64,000 nt of DNA from Bradymonadia bacterium (GTDB taxonomy: Bacteria > Myxococcota_A > Bradymonadia > UBA7976 > UBA1532). The position numbers and the translations under genes were made by a program. This document shows positions 15,536 to 29,784 of the stretch, one piece after another. Numbering within the stretch: the first letter of the stretch is position 1; each line of letters begins with the position of its first letter. Location of the stretch: assembly GCA_046290225.1 (NCBI GenBank), contig JBKAGE010000040.1, positions 54,272-118,271 of the forward strand. The letters run 5' to 3'. Below the pieces are notes generated by a model, which worked only from the letters and a program-made list of their open reading frames with translations, did not search any database and was not told the origin of the DNA.

Positions 15536-16999
15536 TCAGTTGCTGCTGCGGGTGTGGATGTTGTGCTTCTTGAGCAGCTCGCGCAGGTGATATCGGGTCA
15601 GCCCGGCGGACTTGGCGCTCTGAGAGATGTTGCCGCTGTGGCGCTCGATGAGCTTGCGCAAATACACGCCCTCGAATTCGTCGAGGATGGCCTGCTTGGC
15701 GTCTTTGAACGAGACGTCGATGTCGATGTCGACGGTGATGTCGTTGCCTTCGCCACCGCTGCCCCCCTCGCTGCCGGAGAACGGTGTGGGGTGGAGCGTT
15801 GATCCCCTGATGAGCCCACCTGGCTCGCTGCCGATGAGGAAATCCTGCCGGGTGAGCACAGGGCCCTCGCCAAGGCTCGCGGCACGCTCGACGACGTTCT
15901 TGAGTTCGCGCACGTTGCCGGGCCACGGGCGAGTTTTGAGGGCCGCATAAGCTTCGGGGCTCACCTCGAGGGGGCTGCGGCCGATCTCGGCTCGCTGCGC
16001 GTTGATGCGCTCGAGGAAGCTCTTGGCGAGCAGGGGCACGTCATCTTTGCGCGAGCGCAACGGGGGCAGGTGTAGTTGCACCACGCTCATTCGAAAGTAG
16101 AGATCTTCCCGGAACTTGCCCTCGGTGACCATCTGCCGCAGATCGCGGTTCGTCGCCGCCACCACCCGTACGTCGACGTTGACGGTGCGATCGGAGCCCA
16201 CCCGCTTCACCTCGCGGTTCTCGAGCACGCGCAGCAGCTTGGGCTGCATGTCGAGGGGCAGCTCTCCGAGCTCGTCGAGGAAGATGGTGCCGCCATGGGC
16301 CTGCTCGAAGACACCCTTGTGAGACGAGATCGCCCCGGTGAAGGCGCCCTTCTCGTGACCGAAGACTGTCGACTCGATGAGATCTTTGGGGATCGCCGAG
16401 CAGTCGAGCACCACGAAGGGCTTCTTGCTCCGGGGGCTGGCATTGTGCACAGCCCGAGCCACCACCTCTTTACCGGTGCCGGTCTCGCCCTGGATCATCA
16501 CCGTCAGCTCACTCGGAGCCACCCGCTCGAGGTTGGCGAAGATCTCCCGCATGGGCACGCTGGCGCCGATGACCTTGTCGAAGCGATCCCGCTCGCTCAG
16601 GGCGATGGTCAGGATGTCCTGTGTGGGCTGGAACTTCATGACCGAGTTGCCAGCTCGGAAGATCGTACCTGGCTTCAGATAGATCTCCCTGATTTTGATG
16701 TCGCCGTAGAAGGTGCCGTTGGTGCTGCCCTCGTCACGCAACACATACCCATTGTCTACGGCGGTGATCCTGAAGTGCAGGCTGGACACGCTCTTGTCGG
16801 TGAGGGCCAGGTCGCACACGCTGGAACGCCCCACGACGACCTGCTCCTGGCTCATGACCAGCTCGGCCCCTTTGTCGGGCCCCTCGAGCACCACCAGCTT
16901 GCTCTTGCGCAGTCGCTTGGCCGTGGCCCGGTTGTTGACGAAGACGGTCTTCAAGGCGCCATCGGCGCCCAGATCGGGGGGCAGATTTGTGGGCAACAA
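15536..16999 (-). CDS. FHA-domain sigma54-dependent enhancer-binding protein
   Basis: FHA motifs (VGRS, VSSLH, STNGT); [29 protein letters not shown]; Fis-type HTH. Confidence 0.95.
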
Positions 17000-17202
17000 G
17001 TGAGGCCTCCCAGCCAGCGTGATGTCGGTGCACGTCCCCAGGGAGTGTAGAGGGCAATGGCGCGAAAGGCCAGTGTAGGGCCAGCTCGACGAGGGGGGTC
17101 TGCCTCACGGGCCCGACGCCCGAGCTCGCCATTTGGATAAAACTGCGAGCCAAAAGACGCACAACGACAACAAACATGGCTAAAAACGCCTAAAAACCGT
17201 CT

Positions 17203-17218
17203 TGGCACACGTGCTGCA
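17203..17218 (+). promoter_or_regulatory. Sigma54 -24/-12 promoter
   Basis: TGGCACacgtgcTGCA, exact GG-N10-GC spacing; two A5 tracts 10 bp apart just upstream (17181-17200). Confidence 0.7.
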
Positions 17219-17345
17219 ATGCCAATCTGCCGTGACCACGAGGGTCTCATCAGCGTGACTTCCGTAACTCGATTTGTAACTCGACCCCTTACCCTGTCGC
17301 GCCCCATCACCCCGTGGTTTCTCTATCTGTAAGGAGAGATTCACC

Positions 17346-18833
17346 ATGACCCCTGCCATCGATCGTGCAGCCATCGATCGTGCTGCCCTCGTGGAGCGCG
17401 AGGATCTCGTCGCCTTCATCAACGCGGGCATGGTGGCTACCGGTCAGGCAGAGCGACTGAGCACCGCCTATGCTCAGCGTGTATCTCTCGACTTCTTGCA
17501 TCAATACATCGAAGGCAACTACCCCACCCTCTATGCGCGATGTCTCGCCCTCGGCGCCGGCGGCGCAGCGGGGCTCAACCGCGTGAACCGCATGCGCATC
17601 GTCTCGCGTCTGCTCGAGCGTGGCGCCCCTGCTGATCCGGCCCGACGGGCCGAGGAAGCACATCTCATCGCCCTCACCCTCGATCAGCTGCCGCCTCACC
17701 GTGTGTACCGCATGTTCGCGGCCCTGGCTCGATCCCGGGTGAACAACCGCCGCGTGCGGGCGGCGATCCGCGGTTGGCTCGGGGGGCGGGATCTGGTCTT
17801 CGATGCGGTGAAGTACCGCCGCTGGCTGGGGATCGCCACCCGTCATGGGCACGTGGCTCTGAAGGGAGAGCTGGGCACCTATGTGTTCCGAGGCCCTGGC
17901 GCCCGGGTGAAGTGGGCCACGCCGCAGTTCGATCGGGTGCGACAGGCCCGCCGTGGTGACTCACGATCCATCTTCGCGCTGCCCCTGAGCGTCGCTGAAG
18001 GATACGCAGGGGCACACGGCATCAGCCGACAGCGCCTGCTCCGAGGGGTGGATGCTCATCTGACCGCCCACGAGCGGACCCGCCTCGTGAACGCAGCAGG
18101 TGTGAAGTCTGATCTCTCCCGTATGCCCCTCGGCCGACTGTGCCGCTTCATCCTCGCTCGGGATCCCGAGCAGCGCACGCAGAGCGAGCACGATCTACGT
18201 GGAGCGCTTTCTGCAGTGGCTGGCCGGGTGGCAGAGCAAAGCCACATCAGCCTGGGCTCGGTGGTGGCTGTCCTCGATCGCGGTGTGAGTGCTTATGGCG
18301 CCGAGGGTCGACAGAACCGGCCACTCTCGGTGGCCATGGGGGCTTCTCAGGTGCTCCGCGGCATTTCGCGCCATTACCGCGCGATCTGGACAGACACTCT
18401 GCGTCAAGACGAGTTGATGCTCACCGTGAAGGGGCGAGGCAATCTGGAAGGGGCGATGCAGCAAGCTCTCGCTCTGCGCCCTGACTGGATCTTCGTCGTC
18501 TCCGATGCGTTCGAAGAGGGCCGCCATGGCCGTGCAGCGAAGGTGGCGAAGATGTACGAGGCCTGCTTCGGGCAGGCCCAGAAGCCCCTGGTGGTGCTGT
18601 TCAACCCGGTGTACGACGCCGAGGAGCTCATGCCTCGCCCCTTGGGCCCCGAGGTGCCAGTGCTCGGCCTCACCGAGCCGGAGCATCTGCCGGCGATGTT
18701 GTCATTCGCCCGCTTTGCGAGCGGCGCATGCGGCATGGCCGAGCTTCAGAGCTGGCTCGCAGGCCAGTCCCAGCGTGCTCGTGCGCGCTGGATCCGTCGC
18801 CTCGCTCAGCGTCAGGCTGCAGCGGCAGCCTGA
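17346..18833 (+). CDS. TROVE/Ro60-like helical protein with a C-terminal vWA-like domain
   Basis: Arg-rich helical N-terminal region (FDAVKYR); vWA-like VVAVLDRGVS, FVVSDAF and VLFNPVYD. Family recognised by eye. Confidence 0.6.
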   Translation: MTPAIDRAAIDRAALVEREDLVAFINAGMVATGQAERLSTAYAQRVSLDFLHQYIEGNYPTLYARCLALGAGGAAGLNRVNRMRIVSRLLERGAPADPARRAEEAHLIALTLDQLPPHRVYRMFAALARSRVNNRRVRAAIRGWLGGRDLVFDAVKYRRWLGIATRHGHVALKGELGTYVFRGPGARVKWATPQFDRVRQARRGDSRSIFALPLSVAEGYAGAHGISRQRLLRGVDAHLTAHERTRLVNAAGVKSDLSRMPLGRLCRFILARDPEQRTQSEHDLRGALSAVAGRVAEQSHISLGSVVAVLDRGVSAYGAEGRQNRPLSVAMGASQVLRGISRHYRAIWTDTLRQDELMLTVKGRGNLEGAMQQALALRPDWIFVVSDAFEEGRHGRAAKVAKMYEACFGQAQKPLVVLFNPVYDAEELMPRPLGPEVPVLGLTEPEHLPAMLSFARFASGACGMAELQSWLAGQSQRARARWIRRLAQRQAAAAA

Positions 18834-18860
18834 CGCTGTGGCTGAGGCACACGCATCTGC

Positions 18861-21800
18861 TCAGTCTGCCGTGCGGTACACCGAGAGGATCTCTCGAGTG
18901 GGTGTCGGGGTCCACACCTCCTCTGCAGTGACGGAGGCCCGGCTCTGGTTCCCGGCGAGGTGTTCGTCGAGGGCGGCCAGAGTGACGGGCTCGATGCGCT
19001 CGCCGTACTGGGCCAATCGCAGTCCGACGAGGGTGGAGCTGCAATGGGCCCCCTCGGCGAGGATCTCCACATCGTCCTGCCGCAGGCCGTTGTGGGACAC
19101 ATCGAGGCACCTCAAAGTGCGGTTGTGTCGCAACACCTCTGCCCAGGCCTCGCAACCGCGACGGCCAATGCGATTCCCCAGCTCCCCCACAGCAGCGGTG
19201 GCCCGGTTCCAGCCCAGACTGAGCATCTGCAGGGTCGGGTGCTCGGCGACGGCCTCGGCGAGGGCCACAGCCCCATCAGGGCCGATGCGATTCGACGCCA
19301 CCGACAACCGCTTCAGGCCTCCGCCACGGGCGCCGTCGGCCTTCAGGGCCTCCGCGAGGGCGGTGGCCCCCACATCTCCCAGGCGATTGCAGCTCACAAA
19401 GAGCGACGACAACCGGCTCCCCTCGGCGAGGGATCGCACCACGGGCTCGATGCCCTCGGGGGTGATCCCATTGGTGCCAAGGTAGAGGTGGCGCAGGCTG
19501 GTGTTCACCCTCACCCCCTCCATGATCTCCCTCACGCCTTCGTCCAGCAGGCCCGTGTTCACCAGATCGAGGGTGACGAGGCCCGTGAGCCCCTTAAGCA
19601 GCCGCTTCAAGTGAACAGCACCGCTGGCCTTGATGGGGTTGCGCTTGAGCCACAGCCCTTCGACCTGCAGTTGCCCCACGAGGGCCTCGCAGATGGGGGC
19701 CAGCCCGTCGGCGTCGATGTGATTGCCGGCGATGTACCACACCTGAACCGGTGACTGCCCCGAGCGAATGAACTCGGCGATGGCCCCGGCCCCGGTGTTG
19801 CCCACGATGTTGTTCCCCAACAACAGCCGCTTCACCTGTGGGTTGCTGTCCACGGCGCTCAACAAGGGCTCGATCCCCGCGGGGCCCACGACCTGCTTGC
19901 ACAGATCGAGGCGGCCATCTGGGGTGAGCGTGCCTCGAGGAAAGGCCGTGTCTTGGCTCACCTGCTCGTGATCGGCGGCGAGGTGCTCCAGCAGCGGTGC
20001 CAGCTCGTCGAGCGGACACGGCACCACGGGCACTGGCAGCGGCTCGATGACGGCCTCGCTGATGGGGGCCGTAAGCGCCTCGGGGGTCCACTCTGGCACA
20101 CCGAGCCGCCTAGTCGACACCGCACCACTCACCTGAGCCTCTTGAGCCCGGATGTGGTGGCCCAGGCCGGCGATGAGACGCCGATAGCGCGCATAGGCGG
20201 TGCGGCGATCCTGTCCACCGCTCAGCCGCCGCGCCACGGCGCGCCCCAGGTTGCACCGTCGATCAGTGGCTCCGTTGATGCGTGGGGCACCCAGAGCCAC
20301 CAGAGAGGTGGGCAGCCCCGCCTCGAGCAAACCTTCATCGGCGTTGAGCGTCGCCGCGATCTGCTCGGCGACGGCCTGGTGCAAGCCCATGAGACCGTCG
20401 CCGTACAGCCCCGGCTGCTCGTCGGCGATCTCACAGGCGAGCAGGGCCAACCGATTGAGGGCCTTCACCCCACACGACGCCAACAACATCGGCAAATGCG
20501 GCGCCACGCCACCTGGGATCGCCAGGTGCGCCGCCATCCACAGCCGATACACCGCATCTCCAGGGAGCGGCGCCTCGATGTGATCCACAGGCCCGTAGTC
20601 ATATGACTGGTACAGGCTGCACGCCGAGGCGAGGAGCGCTTTCGGCGTCAGCCCAGGCGTCGTGCGCAGGGCCTCGCCCACAGGGGCGATCCATCGCTCG
20701 AGGGCTTCGTCCTCATCCACCCACGTGGCCAGCAGCTCCGGGCGCACCAGGTGTGTCGCAGGCACCTCTTCATCTTCGAGCGACGCCGGCAGCCCCTGAT
20801 GCACGAACTGGCCAATGAAGGCCTGGAGCGTGTCCATGGGCCAACGGTCTGGCGCGAAGTGCCCCCCCGGGTGGGTGGCCAGGGCGCCGTGCTCGAAGCA
20901 CCGCGACAGCGCAATGGAGCGCTCAGGCGGCACCATCTCGTCACGCTCGCCGTAGATGTGCATCGAGGGCAATTTCAGCGGCTGCGCCATCAACGGCGCC
21001 AGCTCGGGATCCCGAGGGGTGAAGCTCGAGATGCTGATCACGAACCGCAGTTGGATCGCCTCAAGGGGCTGCAATGCCCCGAGCAGCGCCGCCACGGCCC
21101 CACCCTGGGAGAAACCCACAACGCCATCGAAGGGCCCCTGGCGCTGAAACACCTCCTGCAGATACGTCAGAGTCTGCGACCAGCCCGCATAGCGTACTGG
21201 GGTTTCCTGGGCATCCCACCAGCGGCGCAGATGAGGCGTCTCCGGATCGCACATGTGAGGTGCGTCCACATAGACCAGCTCGGCGACCCCCTCGAGAGCC
21301 TTGCGCAGCTTGCGGGTCTTCGCCTTGAGCACCCCGCCGTTCTGCCGGAAGCCGTGGAGCACGAGCACCCGTGCAGGCCGAAGGCCCGTGGGCTCCGGTG
21401 AAGGCGTCAGCTGTGGGTGTCGCCGCTGCTGGAGGAAGCAGCGCTCCTCGACGGTGCTTTCCCGGCCCAGGGCCACATTGTGAATCGGGTGTCGTCCGAA
21501 CCGCTCCAGGGCCTTCACGTCTTTTCGAGCCCGAGCCAGCAAATGGCGGTATGTCCGCCGCTGCCCGCGGGTCAAAGGATCGCTCACCAGCGCGAAGAAA
21601 CCCTCCAGGGCATCTGCCATGACGGCCTGGTCCTCGCTGTGACCCAAGATCAAGTACGCCAGAGCCCGAGCCGGCGGCGGCAGCTCAGCGTCACCCTCAG
21701 AAGCGCGCAGGCTCTGGGCCAGCCTCGACGCCACCGTATCCGTGGCCACCATCCGTGGGGTGTCGGCGTGCAGATGCCGGGGCACTTGATCGAGCAAGAT

Positions 21801-22205
21801 CATCAACGCCAGCGTACCCCTCGGATGCCGCTGCCAGTGCTCCAGGTCACCGGCCACCGCCTGCTCGAAGCGCGCCTCGATGCCCTCGGGCAGCGGTACC
21901 GGGCGCTCTGGCGTGTCGATGAACCACAGCCTCTGATCGACGGGGTGTTTTGGATCCCAGGCCTGCTCGGGGGTGCCTGTCCAATGGCGCAGTACCTCGT
22001 CGATCTGCCTCTCGGTGGCGTCGAGGCGCGCGATCTCGCGTCGCCCCTCAGCGAGGGCGTGGAGCAGATCGGGCAACCCGCCTGCACCGTTGACGATGTG
22101 CCTCGCGATCTGCGCTCTCAGGCCGGCACATCGTTCCACGAGAGCCAGGAGCGCAGGTTGATGGGGGTCGATGTTCGTGGATGTAAGGGTCTGTTTCTGT
22201 TGCAT
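18861..22205 (-). CDS. Multidomain fusion: DUF924 + FSH1-type serine hydrolase + helical linker + RNI-like LRRs
   Basis: ATG at 22205 with GGAG RBS; ILLDQVPRH and RFGRHPIHNVALGREST (DUF924); LHGFRQN, GFSQGG, GERD, HPGGH (FSH1); LDLCKQ followed by LxLxxNxIG repeats. Confidence 0.85.
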   Translation of the reverse strand: MQQKQTLTSTNIDPHQPALLALVERCAGLRAQIARHIVNGAGGLPDLLHALAEGRREIARLDATERQIDEVLRHWTGTPEQAWDPKHPVDQRLWFIDTPERPVPLPEGIEARFEQAVAGDLEHWQRHPRGTLALMILLDQVPRHLHADTPRMVATDTVASRLAQSLRASEGDAELPPPARALAYLILGHSEDQAVMADALEGFFALVSDPLTRGQRRTYRHLLARARKDVKALERFGRHPIHNVALGRESTVEERCFLQQRRHPQLTPSPEPTGLRPARVLVLHGFRQNGGVLKAKTRKLRKALEGVAELVYVDAPHMCDPETPHLRRWWDAQETPVRYAGWSQTLTYLQEVFQRQGPFDGVVGFSQGGAVAALLGALQPLEAIQLRFVISISSFTPRDPELAPLMAQPLKLPSMHIYGERDEMVPPERSIALSRCFEHGALATHPGGHFAPDRWPMDTLQAFIGQFVHQGLPASLEDEEVPATHLVRPELLATWVDEDEALERWIAPVGEALRTTPGLTPKALLASACSLYQSYDYGPVDHIEAPLPGDAVYRLWMAAHLAIPGGVAPHLPMLLASCGVKALNRLALLACEIADEQPGLYGDGLMGLHQAVAEQIAATLNADEGLLEAGLPTSLVALGAPRINGATDRRCNLGRAVARRLSGGQDRRTAYARYRRLIAGLGHHIRAQEAQVSGAVSTRRLGVPEWTPEALTAPISEAVIEPLPVPVVPCPLDELAPLLEHLAADHEQVSQDTAFPRGTLTPDGRLDLCKQVVGPAGIEPLLSAVDSNPQVKRLLLGNNIVGNTGAGAIAEFIRSGQSPVQVWYIAGNHIDADGLAPICEALVGQLQVEGLWLKRNPIKASGAVHLKRLLKGLTGLVTLDLVNTGLLDEGVREIMEGVRVNTSLRHLYLGTNGITPEGIEPVVRSLAEGSRLSSLFVSCNRLGDVGATALAEALKADGARGGGLKRLSVASNRIGPDGAVALAEAVAEHPTLQMLSLGWNRATAAVGELGNRIGRRGCEAWAEVLRHNRTLRCLDVSHNGLRQDDVEILAEGAHCSSTLVGLRLAQYGERIEPVTLAALDEHLAGNQSRASVTAEEVWTPTPTREILSVYRTAD

Positions 22206-22213
22206 GAGTGACT

Positions 22214-22352
22214 CCGTTCTTTCACCGGCGAGGCAAGGGTTCGGTTGACGCGCTCGCGGTGTACTGGGCGACGCCCGAGTGGCGCCGACGACAACTTTTG
22301 ATTTCAAAACGAGGGTGTACCTCTCGAGCACGCGCTCGCGAGGTGAAGACGG
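22214..22352. ncRNA. Candidate structured RNA element
   Basis: Nested stems 22214-22232/22335-22352 and 22252-22259/22321-22329; internal hairpin GGGC-GAC-GCCC and dyad TTTTGA-TT-TCAAAA; GGTGTAC occurs twice. Confidence 0.55.
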
Positions 22353-22504: not shown

Positions 22505-24433
22505 ATGAGACTCACACAGCTGAAGATCAAGCAGCGCATCGGTTTGGGGTTTGGCATCTCCCTGTGCTTGATGCTCTTCCTCGCTGGAAGCGCATGGCTC
22601 ACCATGAGTCATGTCGACGAACGCGTGCAGACACACAGCGCTTTTGCCCATGACGTCCGGCAGGTCAGGTAGGTGCAGCTGAAGATGCTCGCCGCTCAGG
22701 TGAGCGTGATGCAGGCCATGCTCGGCAACGCTTCGAGCGCGGAGCACGTGGAGGCAGATCGCGCAGCCTCGATGTCGCTGCTCGGCGAGCTCGCCGAGCA
22801 GGCAAAGGGCACCGAGCAGCACGAGCAGCTCAAAGCCATGGCCTCGGAGCTGAGCACCTACTTCGCCTCTTTCGAGCGGGTGGTGCAGACCAATGCGCAG
22901 CTCGCCGAGGTCACAGCTGATCTCGTTCAAAAGACTGAGCAACTGCATCAAGCCGCGCGCGCTACAGGCTCTCCGGCGCTGCTCGAGGCCATTCAGCGAC
23001 AACACGTCGACACCTTCGCCTACCTGTTCGCCCCAGGTCAGGCCAGCTATCTGAAGGCACTGCATCAAACCGACCGGTCACAGGCCCTCGTCGGCGGTCA
23101 CGAGAGCGTCGCCGGCCTCGCCCACGATACGCGTACGGCGCTCATCCGTGCCCGGGCCTATCACATTCAGAAGAGCACCCTCATCAAGTACTCGCTTTCG
23201 GTCCTCGGCCCCGAAGTCGCGGCCAAAATCGATGCGTTTCGTGAGCAGATCGACGGGCGTCTCGACACGCTCAGTGCCGATGTCCAGTCCACCATGGGCA
23301 CCTCGCAGAGCAACCTGTTGCTGTTCTCGCTCCTCGCTGTGGCCACAGGGCTGATCTTCGCCTGGCTCATCGGCCGCAGCATCAGCGGGCCTGTCCAGCA
23401 GCTCAGCGAGGTCATGTCCCGCTTGTCTCAGCGAGACTACGACGTGGAGATCAACTTCACCGATCAGCAGAACGAGATCGGCGAGATGAGCCGCACCCTG
23501 GAAGTCTTCAGACACAACATGGAGCAGGTGGACTCTCTGACACATCTCGAGTCGGCCATGGCCGCCCGAAGCGCTCAGGAGACCCAGGCCAGCCGCATCG
23601 CCGAGCTGAGCAGTGAGTTCGACGTGGGTGTCAAGGCCATCCTCGAGGCCCTCGATGCCGCCACGGGTCAGCTCGACGCCTCGTCTTCGAGCATGGGCGC
23701 GGTGGCTGATCGCACACAGACCCTCGCCTCATCGGCGTCGGCCTCCTCTGTTCAAGCGGCGAGCAACGTGCAAACCGTCGCCGTGGCCGCAGAGGCCCTC
23801 TCGGATTCGATCGAAGCCATCGGGGCACAGGTGCACACCTCCACCGAGCTGTCTCATCGCGCCTCTCAGAGCACTGAAGCCACTCATCAGGCGGTGGAGA
23901 AGCTGTCGCGCTCTACAGAGCGCATCGGCGAGGTGGTCACGCTCATCAGCGACATCGCAGAGCAGACGAACCTGCTGGCTCTGAACGCCACCATCGAGGC
24001 CGCCCGGGCTGGTGACGCAGGCAAGGGCTTCGCTGTCGTCGCCGACGAGGTGAAGCGACTGGCCAGCCAGACCGCCACGGCCACTGAAGAGATCGGGCGG
24101 CAGATCAGCGATGTGCAGGCCGAGGCACAGCAGACCATCGACGCCATCCTGACCATCAACCAGGCCGTCACTCAAATCGACGCGTCGATCGCGGTCATCG
24201 CCTCATCGGTGGATGCGCAGGGGCAGTCGACGCGGGACATCGCCCGCAATGTGCAGGCCGCCGCCGAGGGGACTCAGTCGGTCTCCACCCACATCGACGA
24301 GGTCAACACCAGCGCCCACGACGTCGATCGGGCTGCGCAGGACGTCGCCACGGCGCAGTCGGCCCTCAGCGCACAGTCGGTGCGCTTGAAGGGCATGGTG
24401 GACCAGTACCTCGAGCAGGTGCGCAGCGCCTGA
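22505..24433 (+). pseudogene. Methyl-accepting chemotaxis protein interrupted by an in-frame TAG at 22670-22672
   Basis: TM1 lies before the TAG; the sensor domain, TM2, HAMP (NEIGEMSR) and [34 protein letters not shown] follow in the same frame. Confidence 0.8.
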
Positions 24434-25271: not shown

Positions 25272-26786
25272 ATGCCCGTCGCCGCAGACCTCCGCTCTCC
25301 CCTGCTCACCGACCTGTACCAGCTCACCATGGCCAGCGGTTACTGGTCCCTGGGCATGGCCGATCACGAGGCGGTGTTCCACCTCTTCTACCGCCGTCCT
25401 CCCTTCAAGGGCGGGTACGCCATCGCCGCGGGCCTCGAAGCGGTCATCGACTATCTGAAGGGCTGGCGCTTCACCGAAGAGGATCGAGCGTTCCTCGCCA
25501 CCCTCACCGGGAACGACGGGCAGCCCCTGTTTCCCGAGGGGTTCCTGCAGTACCTCGTCGACACCCCCTTCAGCTGTGAGATCGACGCGGTGCCCGAGGG
25601 CACCGTGGTGGCGCCTCACGCGCCGCTGATCCGGGTGAAGGGTCCGCTGATCCAGGGGCAGCTCATCGAGACGCCTCTGCTCACCATGGTGAACTTCCAG
25701 ACCCTCATCGCCACCAAGTCGGCCCGCATCTGCGCCGCGGCGCAGGGGGAGCCGGTCCTGGAGTTCGGCCTGCGCCGGGCTCAAGGGGTGGACGGTGGGC
25801 TCTCGGCGAGCCGGGCAGCCTATGTGGGCGGCTGTGCTGCCACGAGCAATGTGCTCGCGGGGCGCGTGTACGGGATCCCGGTGAAGGGCACCCACGCCCA
25901 CAGCTGGGTGATGGCCTTCGAAGATGAGGTCACGGCCTTCGAGTCGTACGCCCGGGCCATGCCCAACAACTGCGTGTTCCTCGTGGACACCTACGACACG
26001 GTAGAAGGGGTGAAGCGCGCCATCGAAGTGGGCAAGGCGCTGAGGGCCAACGGCCACGAAATGGTGGGGGTGAGGCTCGACTCTGGCGATCTGGCAACTT
26101 TGAGCATCGAGGCCCGCCGCCTGCTCGACGAGGCGGGTTTCCCCGACGCTGCGGTGGTGGCGAGCAACGATCTCGACGAGTACAACATCGCCCGCCTCAA
26201 GGCCGATGGGGCCCGCATCGGGGTCTGGGGGGTGGGCACCCGCCTCGCCACGGCCTACGATCAGCCCGCCCTCGGCGGCGTGTACAAACTCGCCGCCATC
26301 CGAGGTGCAGCTGAGGCAGGCGCAGAGCAGGACTGGCGCCGCACCATCAAGCTCTCTGAGCAGGCCATCAAGGTCTCCAACCCTGGTATTCTGCAGGTGC
26401 GCCGCTTCACGAATGACGCAGGGGCGCCTCTCGCCGACGTCATCTACGACGAGCTCGATCCCCCTGCAGGGCTTGATTCCGGCGCGTTCCAGATGGTGAA
26501 CCCCGCCACGGACGAGGGTGTAGTCGACACCCCACCAGGCGCAGGCGAAGACCTTCTGGTCCCGGTGTTTCGGGACGGCAAAGCGGTCTACGACACCCCG
26601 CCCATCGACGAGATCAGGGACCACGCCCTGCGACAGCTCGCGGCGTTGCCTGCGGAGATTGCCGCGGTGGACGCAGGCAAGCAGGGGCACGGTTTGCCCT
26701 GGCGCCTCGAGGCAGGTCTCGCCTCTCGCAAGGCGCAGATGATCGCCGACGCCGGCGCCCTCGCCGAGACAGGAGAGCCCTCGTGA
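25272..26786 (+). CDS. pncB: Nicotinate phosphoribosyltransferase
   Basis: [41 protein letters not shown] and GGVYKL motifs. Confidence 0.93.
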
Positions 26787-27721
26787 ACGACACCCCTCAG
26801 CTGGTCTTCTCCACCGAGGCCTACCGCTACATGAGCGAGGCGCTGTGCGCTCACCCTGAGTTCGAGGCGGGACAGATCCTCACCCGGCACTTCCCCGATG
26901 GCGAGCGCTACATGCGCTTGGAGACCGGGGTGGACGGCCGCGACGTCATCGTACTCGGCGGTACGGTGTCTGCAGCAGACACCCTCGAGTTGTACGATCT
27001 CGCCACCGGTGTCGTGCGCTACGGCGCCCGACGTCTCACCCTGGTCATCCCCTACTTCGGCTACTCCACCATGGAGCGCGCCGTACGCACTGGAGAGATC
27101 ATCACCGCCAAGAGCCGCGCCCGGCTCTTGTCGTCGATCTCCACGGCAAGCTCGGGGAACCGCGTGATTTTGCTCGACCTGCACGTGGAAGGCATCGCGC
27201 AGTACTTCGAGGATGGCGTGCGGCCGATCCATGTGCGGGCCACGCCCCTCATCATGAAGGCGGCCCGTCAGCTCGGCGGCGAGGACTTCGTGCTCGGCAG
27301 CGCCGACACAGGCCGGGCGAAGTGGGTCGAGGCCCTGGCGAATGATCTCGGGGTCTCTGCCTCGTTCGTCTTCAAAAAACGCCTCTCCGGCGACGAGACC
27401 AAAGTGACGGCGGTGAGCGCCCAGTGCGACGGCGCCCACGTGATCATGTACGACGACATGATCCGCACCGGGGGCTCGCTCATCGGCGCCGCCCGGGCTT
27501 ACCAGGAGGCCGGCGCCCGGCGCATCGACGCCATCGCCACCCACGGCGTATTGCCCGAGGGGGCCTTGGAGCGTTTGCGCGACTCGGGCATCTTCCAACA
27601 CATCATCACCACCGACAGCCACCCGAGGGCCCAAGCCCTCGCCGAGGCCGACGACACCGGCTTTTTGCAGATCGTCTCCGTGGCCGATCTGCTCGCCGAC
27701 GACATCAGGAGCCATCCGTGA
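26783..27721 (+). CDS. prs: Ribose-phosphate pyrophosphokinase (divergent)
   Basis: [23 protein letters not shown] and ATHGVL motifs. Confidence 0.85.
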
Positions 27722-29784
27722 AGTTGATTCGCGTGGCCGCTGGGGCCCTCAACCAGACCCCACTCGACTGGGCGGGCAACCGCCGCCGTATCCTCGACCT
27801 CATCGCCGAGGCACGCACTGCCGGGGCCACAGTGCTCTGTCTGCCAGAGCTGTGCATTACGGGCTACGGCTGCGAAGACGCCTTTCAGGCCCCCCACGTC
27901 ACCGAGAAGGCCTGGCAGATCCTGCTCGAGGTGGCGGCGCACTCGACGGACATGGTGGTGAGCCTGGGCCTGCCGGTGCTCTTCAACAATGTGCTCTACA
28001 ACTGCGCCGCGCTGCTCGTGAACGGCCAGGTGGTGGGGCTGGTGGCCAAGCAGTACCTCGCCGGCGATGGGATCCACTACGAGCCCCGCTGGTTCAAGGC
28101 CTGGGAGATGGGCGAGGTGCTCACCTACCGCGGCGCAGGCCCCGATGGCCCTCTCGAAGTGCCCATCGGCGATCTGCACTTCGAGGTGGGCGGGGTGCGC
28201 ATGGGCTTCGAGATCTGCGAAGACGCCTGGGTGGCCCAGCGCCCGGGGAGCGTGCTCGCCCGCCGTGGGGTCGACATCATCTTGAACCCCAGCGCCAGCC
28301 ACTTCGCCTTCGACAAGTGGCGCCTGCGTGAGCGCCTGGTGCTCGAAGGGGCCCGGGCCTTCGGGGTGACCTACGTCTACGCCAACCTGCTCGGGAACGA
28401 GTCGGGCCGGGCGATCTACGACGGGGGCACCCTCATCGCCTGCGGCAGTCAGATGCTCGCCCGTGGGGGCCGCCTGACCCTGGCACCCTCGACGCTGATC
28501 CACGCCATGATCGACGTGCAGCACACCCGCATGCTCCAAGCCCGCACGGTGAGCCTCAAACCCGATCTCGCCTACATCGAGCGGGACGATCGGGTGCGGG
28601 TGCCCTTCGAGTGGCCCGCCCACGAGCCCGCCAACGAGCAGCCCAACCTCGAGCCCTGGGTCCGAGGGCGCCTCGACGAGCCCGAAGATGTAAAGTGCGA
28701 AGAGTTCACCCGGGCCGAAGCCCTGGGCCTCTTCGACTACCTGCGCAAGAGCCGTTCTCGGGGCTTCGTAGTGTCGCTGAGCGGCGGCGCGGACTCCGCA
28801 GCCTGCGCGGCCCTGGTGGGGGTCATGGTGCGCCTCGCCCTCGCCCACCCGGCCCACATGCGCGACGCTCTCGGCTACATCCCCGCGGTGGCGAAGCTGC
28901 TCGACGGGGTCGAGTCGGTGGACTTCGCCGGAGATCCGTGGGGTCATCCCCTGGCTCAACAGCTCACCCAGGCCCTCCTCGTCACCGCCTACCAGGGCAC
29001 CCGAAACAGCTCCGACGTGACCCGCAACGCCGCGGCGGACGTCGCCTCTGCGGTGGGGGCTACACACCATGATCTCGACGTGGACGGCTTGGTGGAGCTC
29101 TACCGCGGCATCACCGAGAAGGCCCTGGGTCGCCCTCTCACCTGGGATCAGGACGACATCGCCCTGCAGAATATCCAGGCCCGCGTCCGCGGGCCCAGCG
29201 TGTGGATGCTCGCGAACATCCATGGCGCCCTGCTGTTGTCGACCTCGAACCGATCCGAGGCCGCCGTGGGCTACGCCACGATGGACGGCGACACCTGTGG
29301 CGGGCTGAGCCCCATCGCCGGCATCGACAAGGATTTTCTGCGGGTGTGGCTGCGCTGGATGGAGCACAACGGGCCCTTCGGCCTCGCGGCGCTGTCGGCG
29401 TTGAACAGTATCAATGTGCAGCAGCCCACGGCGGAGCTTCGCCCACAAGATCAGGGGCAGACGGACGAAGACGATCTGATGCCCTACGATCTGCTCGACG
29501 ACATCGAGCGGGCGGCGATCCGCGACAAGCTCTCGCCCCTGGCGGTGTACCGCCTGATGCGGGTGCGGTTCCCTCAACACAGCGCCGACGACATGCTGAC
29601 CTGGGTGGAGCGCTTCTTCCAGCTGTGGTGCCGCAATCAATGGAAGCGTGAGCGTTACGCCCCGTCGTTCCACCTCGACGACGCCAACCTGGATCCGAAG
29701 ACATGGTGCCGGTTCCCGATTTTGTCCGGGGGTTACTGGGAAGAGCTCGCCGAGCTACGGACGTACGTGAGGGACAAAACCTGA
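27718..29784 (+). CDS. nadE: Glutamine-dependent NAD+ synthetase
   Basis: GTG start overlapping the prs stop; nitrilase domain ([12 protein letters not shown]); [19 protein letters not shown] and QWKR motifs. Confidence 0.95.

Follow-up and report, generated by a model that had tools for sequence, protein, structure and literature searches.

The stretch of DNA analysed here (the window) is 64,000 nt long and comes from the genome of a Bradymonadia bacterium (assembly GCA_046290225.1, contig JBKAGE010000040.1, positions 54,272 to 118,271), which totals 8.58 Mb and is 99.38% complete. In the piece that we examined, positions 15536–22352 of the window, a plus-strand gene (17346–18833) is predicted to encode a divergent Ro60-like protein of 495 aa. 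An ~88-nt structured, Y-like RNA motif (17230–17322) lies just upstream on the same strand, with a sigma54 promoter before it and a divergent activator gene beyond. On the other side, the Ro-like gene converges on a gene for a hydrolase fused to leucine-rich repeats (LRRs). A first-pass annotation, made from the sequence of the window alone, had read these parts as a single ribonucleoprotein system, with the LRR protein as the partner of the Ro-like protein and a second self-pairing element (22214–22352) as its RNA.

The annotation's description of the gene at 17346–18833 as Arg-rich, helical and vWA-like agrees with what we found. Arginine makes up 63 of the 495 residues, and the AlphaFold model, built from a 17-sequence alignment (predicted local distance difference test score, pLDDT, 84.5), has a TROVE-type ring at about residues 12–298 followed by a vWA domain at about 300–460. 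The proposed kinship with Ro60 also held when the model was compared with known structures: all twelve Foldseek matches at E ≤ 0.001 are Ro60 entries. The top three VIA matches are Ro60 structures as well (Z 14.8, 14.2 and 11.1; 402–409 aligned residues; root-mean-square deviation 5.0–5.7; 8–13% identity), the best of them from Thermus phage phiLo, and the Atlas comparison gave template modelling (TM) scores of 0.62–0.71 to TROVE clusters. Neither Pfam nor NCBIfam, TROVE and vWA_Ro60 included, had a model matching the protein at E ≤ 0.1, and no Ro60 chain was matched in a profile search of the PDB. A Csm6 match from that profile search (E 0.0016) was dropped as short and without fold support. 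On the modelled fold, the protein is predicted to be a member of a divergent Ro60-like family that combines a helical ring with a vWA domain. An intact DxSxS...T...D metal site is a feature of the vWA domain of Ro60. The family has DxSxS in 22/22 members, the Thr in 21/22 and the final Asp in 22/22; in the window copy the site is degenerate (D311-x-G313-x-S315, with G365 in place of the Thr).

To sample this family, we fetched the best 80 loci from 411 relatives in GTDB and added 79 metagenome loci, for a total of 159. Ro-like representatives number 306 at E ≤ 1e-30, and the hosts span at least six phyla (Actinomycetota, Myxococcota, Cyanobacteriota, Planctomycetota, Bdellovibrionota and Pseudomonadota). 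The spread is patchy: the gene occurs in 3/61 related genomes and in 9/401 across the phylum, one of these being a more distant subfamily. Four Nostoc plasmids, two of them conjugative, carry the Ro-like module. The idea of a mainly phage-borne family was rejected, since one weak viral locus and one weak phage record were the only such matches.

Comparison of the DNA upstream of the 80 genome homologues brought out a shared, unbranched motif, consisting of a bulged terminal stem, an internal loop, a second helix, a UUCCGAA-type segment and a terminal hairpin. We aligned forty-three copies by sequence alone and assessed structure afterwards. In this alignment 89.1% of the cells are paired and 21 of the 25 pairs have changes on both sides, a result equalled by 0/500 shuffles (a control that ignores relatedness and is not a p-value). 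Slid controls on the same alignment were 38–48% paired, RNAalifold recovered 20 of the 25 pairs unaided, and the sixty-three distinct model-aligned matches from metagenome loci are 91.6% paired. The window copy scores 48.4 bits against the resulting covariance model, R1, in whose training set it was included. Its terminal stem pairs 17235–17245 with 17309–17318 around a one-base bulge at 17241; an internal loop follows, then the second helix from 17253, the conserved pyrimidine-CCG-AA segment and a terminal hairpin (17269–17284) with an 8-nt loop. Every helix of the motif is held, and one pair that hardly varies among the copies has gone from A-U to U-A. The self-pairing leader that the annotation had placed before the Ro-like gene does fold stably (z −3.6, with 1/200 shuffles equally stable). 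No Rfam family matches the leader RNA, and ARAGORN found no tRNA-type gene in the window.

Model R1 also ties the motif to the gene. In 1.2 Mb of genome loci it gave eighty-three matches (two of them duplicates), all directly upstream of a Ro-like gene, and in the 0.6 Mb metagenome set, which was not used in training and in which a few loci repeat training sequences, it gave seventy matches and one weak antisense shadow. Counted by locus, the RNA lies within 400 nt upstream and on the same strand at 77/80 genome loci and 70/79 metagenome loci (147/159 in total); for loci with at least 250 nt of upstream DNA the counts are 77/79 and 68/71. A whole-genome scan placed the RNA in the same 3/61 related genomes as the protein, and it is single-copy in the source genome. 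The median distance from the RNA to the first possible start codon is 24 nt; the gap can widen to 235 nt and is ~220 nt on a Nostoc plasmid. No terminator-like site was found between RNA and gene in the window. Three cyanobacterial loci (L023, L063, L070) have tandem RNA pairs with differing terminal loops upstream of the gene. At the level of sequence comparison, the RNA is shown to be conserved with compensatory changes and tied to the Ro-like gene family. A putative partner RNA encoded beside the Ro-like gene, which the annotation had expected, is present in the form of this leader, mentioned there only in passing.

Two single loci are worth recording here. A Ro-like gene at L201:6997–8439 (minus strand) has neither the RNA nor ARPP-2, the downstream partner described below, and at L195:1367–1450 (minus strand) a 3'-truncated RNA directly abuts an ARPP-2 gene whose start is missing, with the Ro-like gene lost through deletion or misassembly. 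Nine sequencing runs, all in the form of contigs, matched the Streptomyces locus L059. Depth was low and flat in the four that were inspected, and two single-organism runs, whose RNA status was guessed, had no contig over the RNA.

Clustering of the open reading frames that flank the 80 loci yielded one cross-phylum neighbour, a gene of ~385 aa directly downstream that belongs to Pfam family ARPP-2 (PF22549). It is present at 79/80 genome loci and 62/79 metagenome loci (141/159 in total), and where at least 500 nt of DNA follows, it fills the slot directly after the Ro-like gene in 136/138 loci. Within the phylum sample, six of the seven ARPP-2 genes follow a Ro-like gene or a piece of one. 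A complex prediction for the Ro-like/ARPP-2 pair of locus L006 scored 0.68 against 0.00 for the best control, the runs agreeing in at least 85% of contacts and the partner having a pLDDT of at least 68; the mark used is reached by 116/157 solved and 2/215 mismatched pairs and is rough here, with our own alignments as input. The predicted interface is the metal-site face of the vWA domain and includes ARPP-2 residue E171, invariant in 22/22. An acidic residue on this face resembles the contacts that vWA domains make with their ligands. The ARPP-2 model itself (pLDDT 70) had no Foldseek match at E ≤ 0.001 and a best VIA Z of 4.1. No solved ARPP-2-like structure was found on which the docking prediction could have drawn. 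The C-terminus of ARPP-2 may form a helix-turn-helix, as read from its sequence and predicted helices; Pfam made no such call. Judging by the modelled interface, ARPP-2 probably binds the ring across the family.

Several loci vary this arrangement. Protein P0034 is an 828-aa fusion of a Ro-like protein with ARPP-2 (Pfam ARPP-2 at 452–721), which could be a read-through artefact. On the Nostoc edaphicum plasmid pNe_3 (L203:6451–7190), an insertion of XisH and XisI genes separates the Ro-like gene from the following gene, which is of ARPP-2 size. At L202:4712–7788 (minus strand), a distant Ro-like gene with no match to the RNA model is followed directly by ARPP-1; from this locus, the pairing of ring and ARPP may be older than the present Ro-like family.

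We examined the terminal loops of 125 distinct RNAs by heuristic loop calling, with nine more skipped by the script. Eighty-three have a 7-nt loop, and among these position 2 is U in 82, position 1 is C or U in 73, position 6 is a purine in 75 and position 7 is A in 66, while position 3, the wobble place, is spread over all four bases. The 96 tRNA anticodon loops of the source genome share this 7-nt frame.

The source genome appears to hold a reduced form of the system. We found no ARPP-2 in it by tblastn with 79 homologues or with the Pfam model, the assembly being 99.38% complete. In a quick tree, the window protein and two ~60% identical full-length relatives (P0002 and P0003) form a long-branched clade nested in the family (SH-aLRT 99–100; branch to the clade 0.67), and in all three the metal-site Thr and the N-x-P-P loop are changed. 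Of nine conserved interface residues, the window copy keeps four and its two closest relatives four or five, compared with eight or nine in four other homologues. Ring positions are kept at 79/98 in the window copy and at 79–83/98 in the clade, versus 78–89/98 in other homologues. The simplest reading of these sequence comparisons would be that the partner and its docking site were lost and the RNA–ring pair was retained.

The sigma54 (−24/−12) promoter lies at 17202–17219 on the plus strand. The GG-N10-GC signature that the annotation had recognized is real, and its TTGGCAC-N6-TGCA pattern occurs twice in 8.58 Mb, one of the two occurrences being here. From the known spacing of −12 promoters, the start of transcription (+1) would fall close to 17229, where the RNA begins. 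Elsewhere in the family, 103 of 126 distinct upstream regions have a TAnnnT hexamer at fixed spacing before the RNA, 69 of them sharing a single offset, compared with 21 of 584 control windows, and this spacing places +1 on the first paired base of the RNA. We infer that the sigma54 site of the window puts +1 at the same spot as the family's −10 hexamer; no TAnnnT occurs at the usual −10 position in the window copy. A sigma54 activator is found within the flanks of 4/159 homologous loci. By these counts sigma54 control is not the family norm, and the window copy has a strong sigma54 site where the usual −10 promoter would stand. The annotation's sigma54 control stands for this locus and falls as a family trait.

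Diverging from this promoter, as had been annotated, is the gene for an FHA–sigma54 enhancer-binding protein (15536–16999, minus strand), in which Pfam finds FHA, the AAA+ domain Sigma54_activat and a weak HTH_8. It scores 313 bits against the RtcR model, below the cut-off of 650, being of the AAA+ type with FHA, and no CARF domain was matched in it by the domain scan. Activator-like matches number forty-four genome-wide, eight of which include the FHA part. It is plausible that this activator drives the promoter at 17202–17219, as a local gene outside the conserved system.

The gene that converges on the Ro-like gene, at the 27-nt spacing first noted, runs from 18861 to 22205 on the minus strand and encodes 1114 aa from an ATG at 22205. 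The annotation's reading of a fusion with C-terminal LRRs is sound: Pfam finds DUF924, an FSH1 hydrolase with its Ser-Asp-His motifs present and, after a helical linker, repeats of type LRR_6. Its role as partner of the Ro-like protein was not upheld. LRR, FSH1 or DUF924 genes occur at 0/159 homologous loci (many metagenome loci being short), where the downstream slot nearly always belongs to ARPP-2, and the neighbourhood comparison found no co-occurrence of Ro-like gene, LRR gene and the 22214–22352 motif. Ten of 47 genomes with a Ro-like gene carry an LRR-family gene somewhere, and the full domain order of the fusion recurs in two other myxobacterial genomes, on contigs other than that of their Ro-like operon and without the upstream element. 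Among the related genomes the LRR gene is present in 1/61. The helical linker corresponds to the N-terminal extension that this LRR family has ahead of its repeats; some members score against DUF2828 there, and the Atlas comparison places DUF2828 near the Ro-like model (TM 0.58 by query). This tie is one of domain families and not of the locus, and a profile comparison of the LRR family alignment with the Ro-like family found no similarity. The fusion appears to be a separate protein family and a chance neighbour. The LRR family, which has a D-L-C-K-Q motif (18861–22205 in the window; also L098, L099 and L100), is found in bacteria, giant viruses and microbial eukaryotes, with N-terminal fusions to DUF924–FSH1 or to another enzyme-like domain.

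The nested-stem element upstream of the fusion (22214–22352, minus strand) does pair with itself, though weakly: z is −1.7 for the mRNA strand and −2.4 for the opposite one, and widening the bounds by 8 nt brings both strands to −1.4. An extension of the fusion's open frame, starting from a GTG at 22331, runs across part of it, and the element has no Rfam match, no R1 match and no second genomic copy. In 300 other genomes of the phylum there were only partial matches of 20–56 nt, in thirty-five of them, and the DNA upstream of ten LRR homologues contained no match. As a candidate partner RNA it is not conserved, and its place is taken by the leader at 17230–17322. Further along the window, a chemoreceptor-like gene (22532–24433) has one apparent in-frame TAG at ~22670 that splits an N-terminal membrane anchor from the HAMP and MCP domains. 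By eye, 25272–29784 is presumably a NAD salvage cluster (nicotinate phosphoribosyltransferase-like, phosphoribosyl pyrophosphate synthetase-like and glutamine-dependent NAD synthetase-like genes).

Y RNAs, as described in PMC4201824, are 80–130 nt long, have a long stem formed by their paired 5' and 3' ends and a large internal loop, and are encoded beside the Ro gene on the same strand. Y-like RNAs lie upstream of Ro60 in M. smegmatis (same source) and in phage phiLo (PMC12135203). The RNA class of the window fits in size, paired ends, internal loop and same-strand place beside a Ro-type gene. Its UUCCGAA-type segment shares the core of the Ro-binding box (GGUCCGA or GNCGAAN0-1G near the 5' end) but is without the leading G and lies further in. 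The known Ro60/Rsr proteins with their Y RNAs (Xenopus Ro60, 1YVP; D. radiodurans Rsr, 2NVO, with Yrn1 and PNPase in RYPER; phiLo Ro60, 9L5Y, with Yrl1/Yrl2) are matched by a predicted ring and vWA domain over ~400 residues and by an RNA beside the gene in which the ends pair, the stem is bulged and a CCGA(A) segment occurs (PMC4201824 and PMC12135203). Unlike them, the window family has 8–15% identity to these proteins, no TROVE Pfam match and an RNA outside Rfam, with a dedicated downstream ARPP-2 and a single anticodon-like hairpin at the tip of the RNA.

The Salmonella rsr-yrlBA-rtcBA operon, under RtcR and sigma54, also joins a Ro-type gene to a small RNA with a tRNA mimicry theme, and the window genome adds its own sigma54 site and divergent activator to the likeness. 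tRNAs cleaved within their anticodon loop elicit a response of that operon, with YrlA proposed as a competitive inhibitor (PMC7790460), and YrlA has D and T arms, without an anticodon loop in Salmonella (10.1101/312249). The window RNA is the reverse, unbranched and with a single anticodon-like hairpin, and it has no Rfam match. The regulators differ too, the Salmonella RtcR being of CARF type and the window activator of FHA type and below the RtcR cut-off. YrlA has an Rfam family, which we take to be RF02553. As for the partner, Iyer et al. (2022, PMC9503650) propose that ARPP proteins of conflict systems act on sugar moieties, and the partner of the Ro-like family is a full ARPP-2 member (PF22549, next to PF20208 for ARPP-1). 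In contrast to the present loci, the neighbours named in the available part of PMC9503650 are ARG, HIRAN, WYL and a deacetylase, neither TROVE nor RNA, and one text supplement of it contains no ARPP-2 or TROVE string. Literature searches, with related Burroughs/Aravind work and supplements outside their scope, found no description of this RNA or of a TROVE/ARPP-2 pair. The main text of three RNA-motif surveys has no mention of TROVE, Ro60 or ARPP; their supplements could list the motif.

On balance, we lean toward reading the locus as a reduced member of an undescribed module, made up of the 88-nt RNA, a Ro60-type ring and ARPP-2, in which the hairpin would be an anticodon-directed bait. By analogy with Ro60, we consider it likely that RNA and ring form a particle. 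Transcription would start at the first paired base of the RNA. In the manner of Ro60 on Y RNA, the ring would hold the RNA by its bulged lower stem and its CCGAA segment and present the terminal hairpin outward as a mimic of an anticodon loop. This bait would be met by an enzyme directed at tRNA anticodon loops, the likeliest being a toxin- or phage-triggered anticodon nuclease. The ring might either soak up the enzyme or relay the encounter to ARPP-2, which could contact nucleic acid through its helical C-terminus. The bait is the most speculative step; it would fit the link of Rsr operons to anticodon-cut tRNAs (PMC7790460). That the hairpin acts as an anticodon mimic at all we propose tentatively, as slightly more doubtful than not. 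Rather unlikely, in our estimate, is a fuller version in which the RNA represents a new class of Y-like RNA, the inverse of YrlA. A Ro-binding stalk would carry nothing but an anticodon stem-loop and so sense or absorb anticodon nucleases, the ring would pass the signal to ARPP-2, an enzyme-like effector, by a metal contact resembling that of integrins, and here the RNA–ring half alone would have been kept and rewired to sigma54.

A number of observations count against this proposal. By the heuristic, 42/125 RNAs have another loop size or no hairpin, and the loop of the window copy has 8 nt. At loop position 4 U predominates (73) and at position 5 G or A (77), unlike in real tRNAs, and some loop triplets fit no normal bacterial anticodon, so that at most the shape of the loop is mimicked. 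Streptomyces is heavily represented among the RNAs, with two loop types accounting for 36/83, and the counts are not independent. The motif does not have the GNCGAA box of YrlA; it has only the CCGA core in common with the vertebrate site, and this core lies beyond the second helix and not in the terminal one. No RNA-repair or ligase gene (RtcB/RtcA) recurs in the flanks of the 80 loci or stands beside the window gene, RtcB not having been searched by name. Five Ro-like genes (L127, L172, L180, L201 and L048) are orphans without the RNA. With regard to the reduced form, the interface count covers nine positions, conserved vWA positions outside the interface are relaxed as well (34/53 kept), and the search for ARPP-2 covered one of the three clade members, the window genome.

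The short median distance to the start codon would also suit a cis element, and we give a low probability to the RNA being a 5' leader in which the Ro-like protein or ARPP-2 binds its own mRNA and sets operon output with no free particle. The RNA is indeed always upstream and on the same strand, with no terminator-like site before the gene in the window; yet its two ends pair to close off a single unit, with the predicted start site at its beginning, copies can stand in tandem with different loops, the gap to the gene can reach 235 nt (~220 nt on the Nostoc plasmid), and known Y-like RNAs likewise lie upstream of Ro60 genes (PMC4201824 and PMC12135203). The two roles can coexist. About equally improbable is a RYPER-like tether, in which the ring binds the RNA and the hairpin, as nothing more than a U-turn loop, recruits a housekeeping nuclease such as PNPase for the decay of structured RNA. 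Such a tether is established for D. radiodurans Rsr/Yrn1 and, in vitro, for phiLo Ro60 (PMC4201824 and PMC12135203), phiLo Ro60 is the best VIA match, and the fixed loop positions 4–5 are unlike those of tRNAs. It leaves unexplained the near-obligate ARPP-2, the free wobble position in a tRNA-like loop and the tandem copies with different loops.

We think it very unlikely that the window copy is a decaying remnant after loss of ARPP-2. The absent partner, the changed metal site, the branch of 0.67 and an RNA score among the lowest would all suit decay, but the 495-aa frame is intact, the two ~60% identical relatives are full-length and have the same changes, ring positions are kept as in other members, all RNA helices are kept (with the A-U to U-A swap), and a near-perfect sigma54 site is positioned at the start of the RNA. 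Still more improbable is the system of the first-pass annotation, with Ro-like protein, LRR–hydrolase fusion and 22214–22352 as one sigma54-controlled module, and as a conserved module it is largely refuted. In its favour are the 27-nt convergence, the adjacency of two genes that are each rare in related genomes (1/61 and 3/61), the position of the LRR gene in the usual place of ARPP-2, the DUF2828-like piece in the LRR family, and the 10/47 Ro-like genomes with an LRR-family gene. However, the fusion is at none of the 159 loci, the two genes are on opposite strands and hence not on one transcript, full fusions elsewhere lie on other contigs, the element is not conserved, and the profiles of the two families have no similarity.

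To our knowledge, the role and effectors of bacterial Ro60 rings and Y RNAs are open for nearly all species, and so is the effector of YrlA. The reading that we favour, of RNA, ring and ARPP-2 as one module, makes the family a compact and testable case, in which a single small RNA goes with a single ring and a named partner whose interface is predicted. An RNA class absent from Rfam is added, and the uncharacterised ARPP-2 family gains its first physical context, as predicted here. The Ro-like family occurs in culturable strains of Streptomyces, Nostoc and Sorangium, for which the partner-less window copy would be a natural control.

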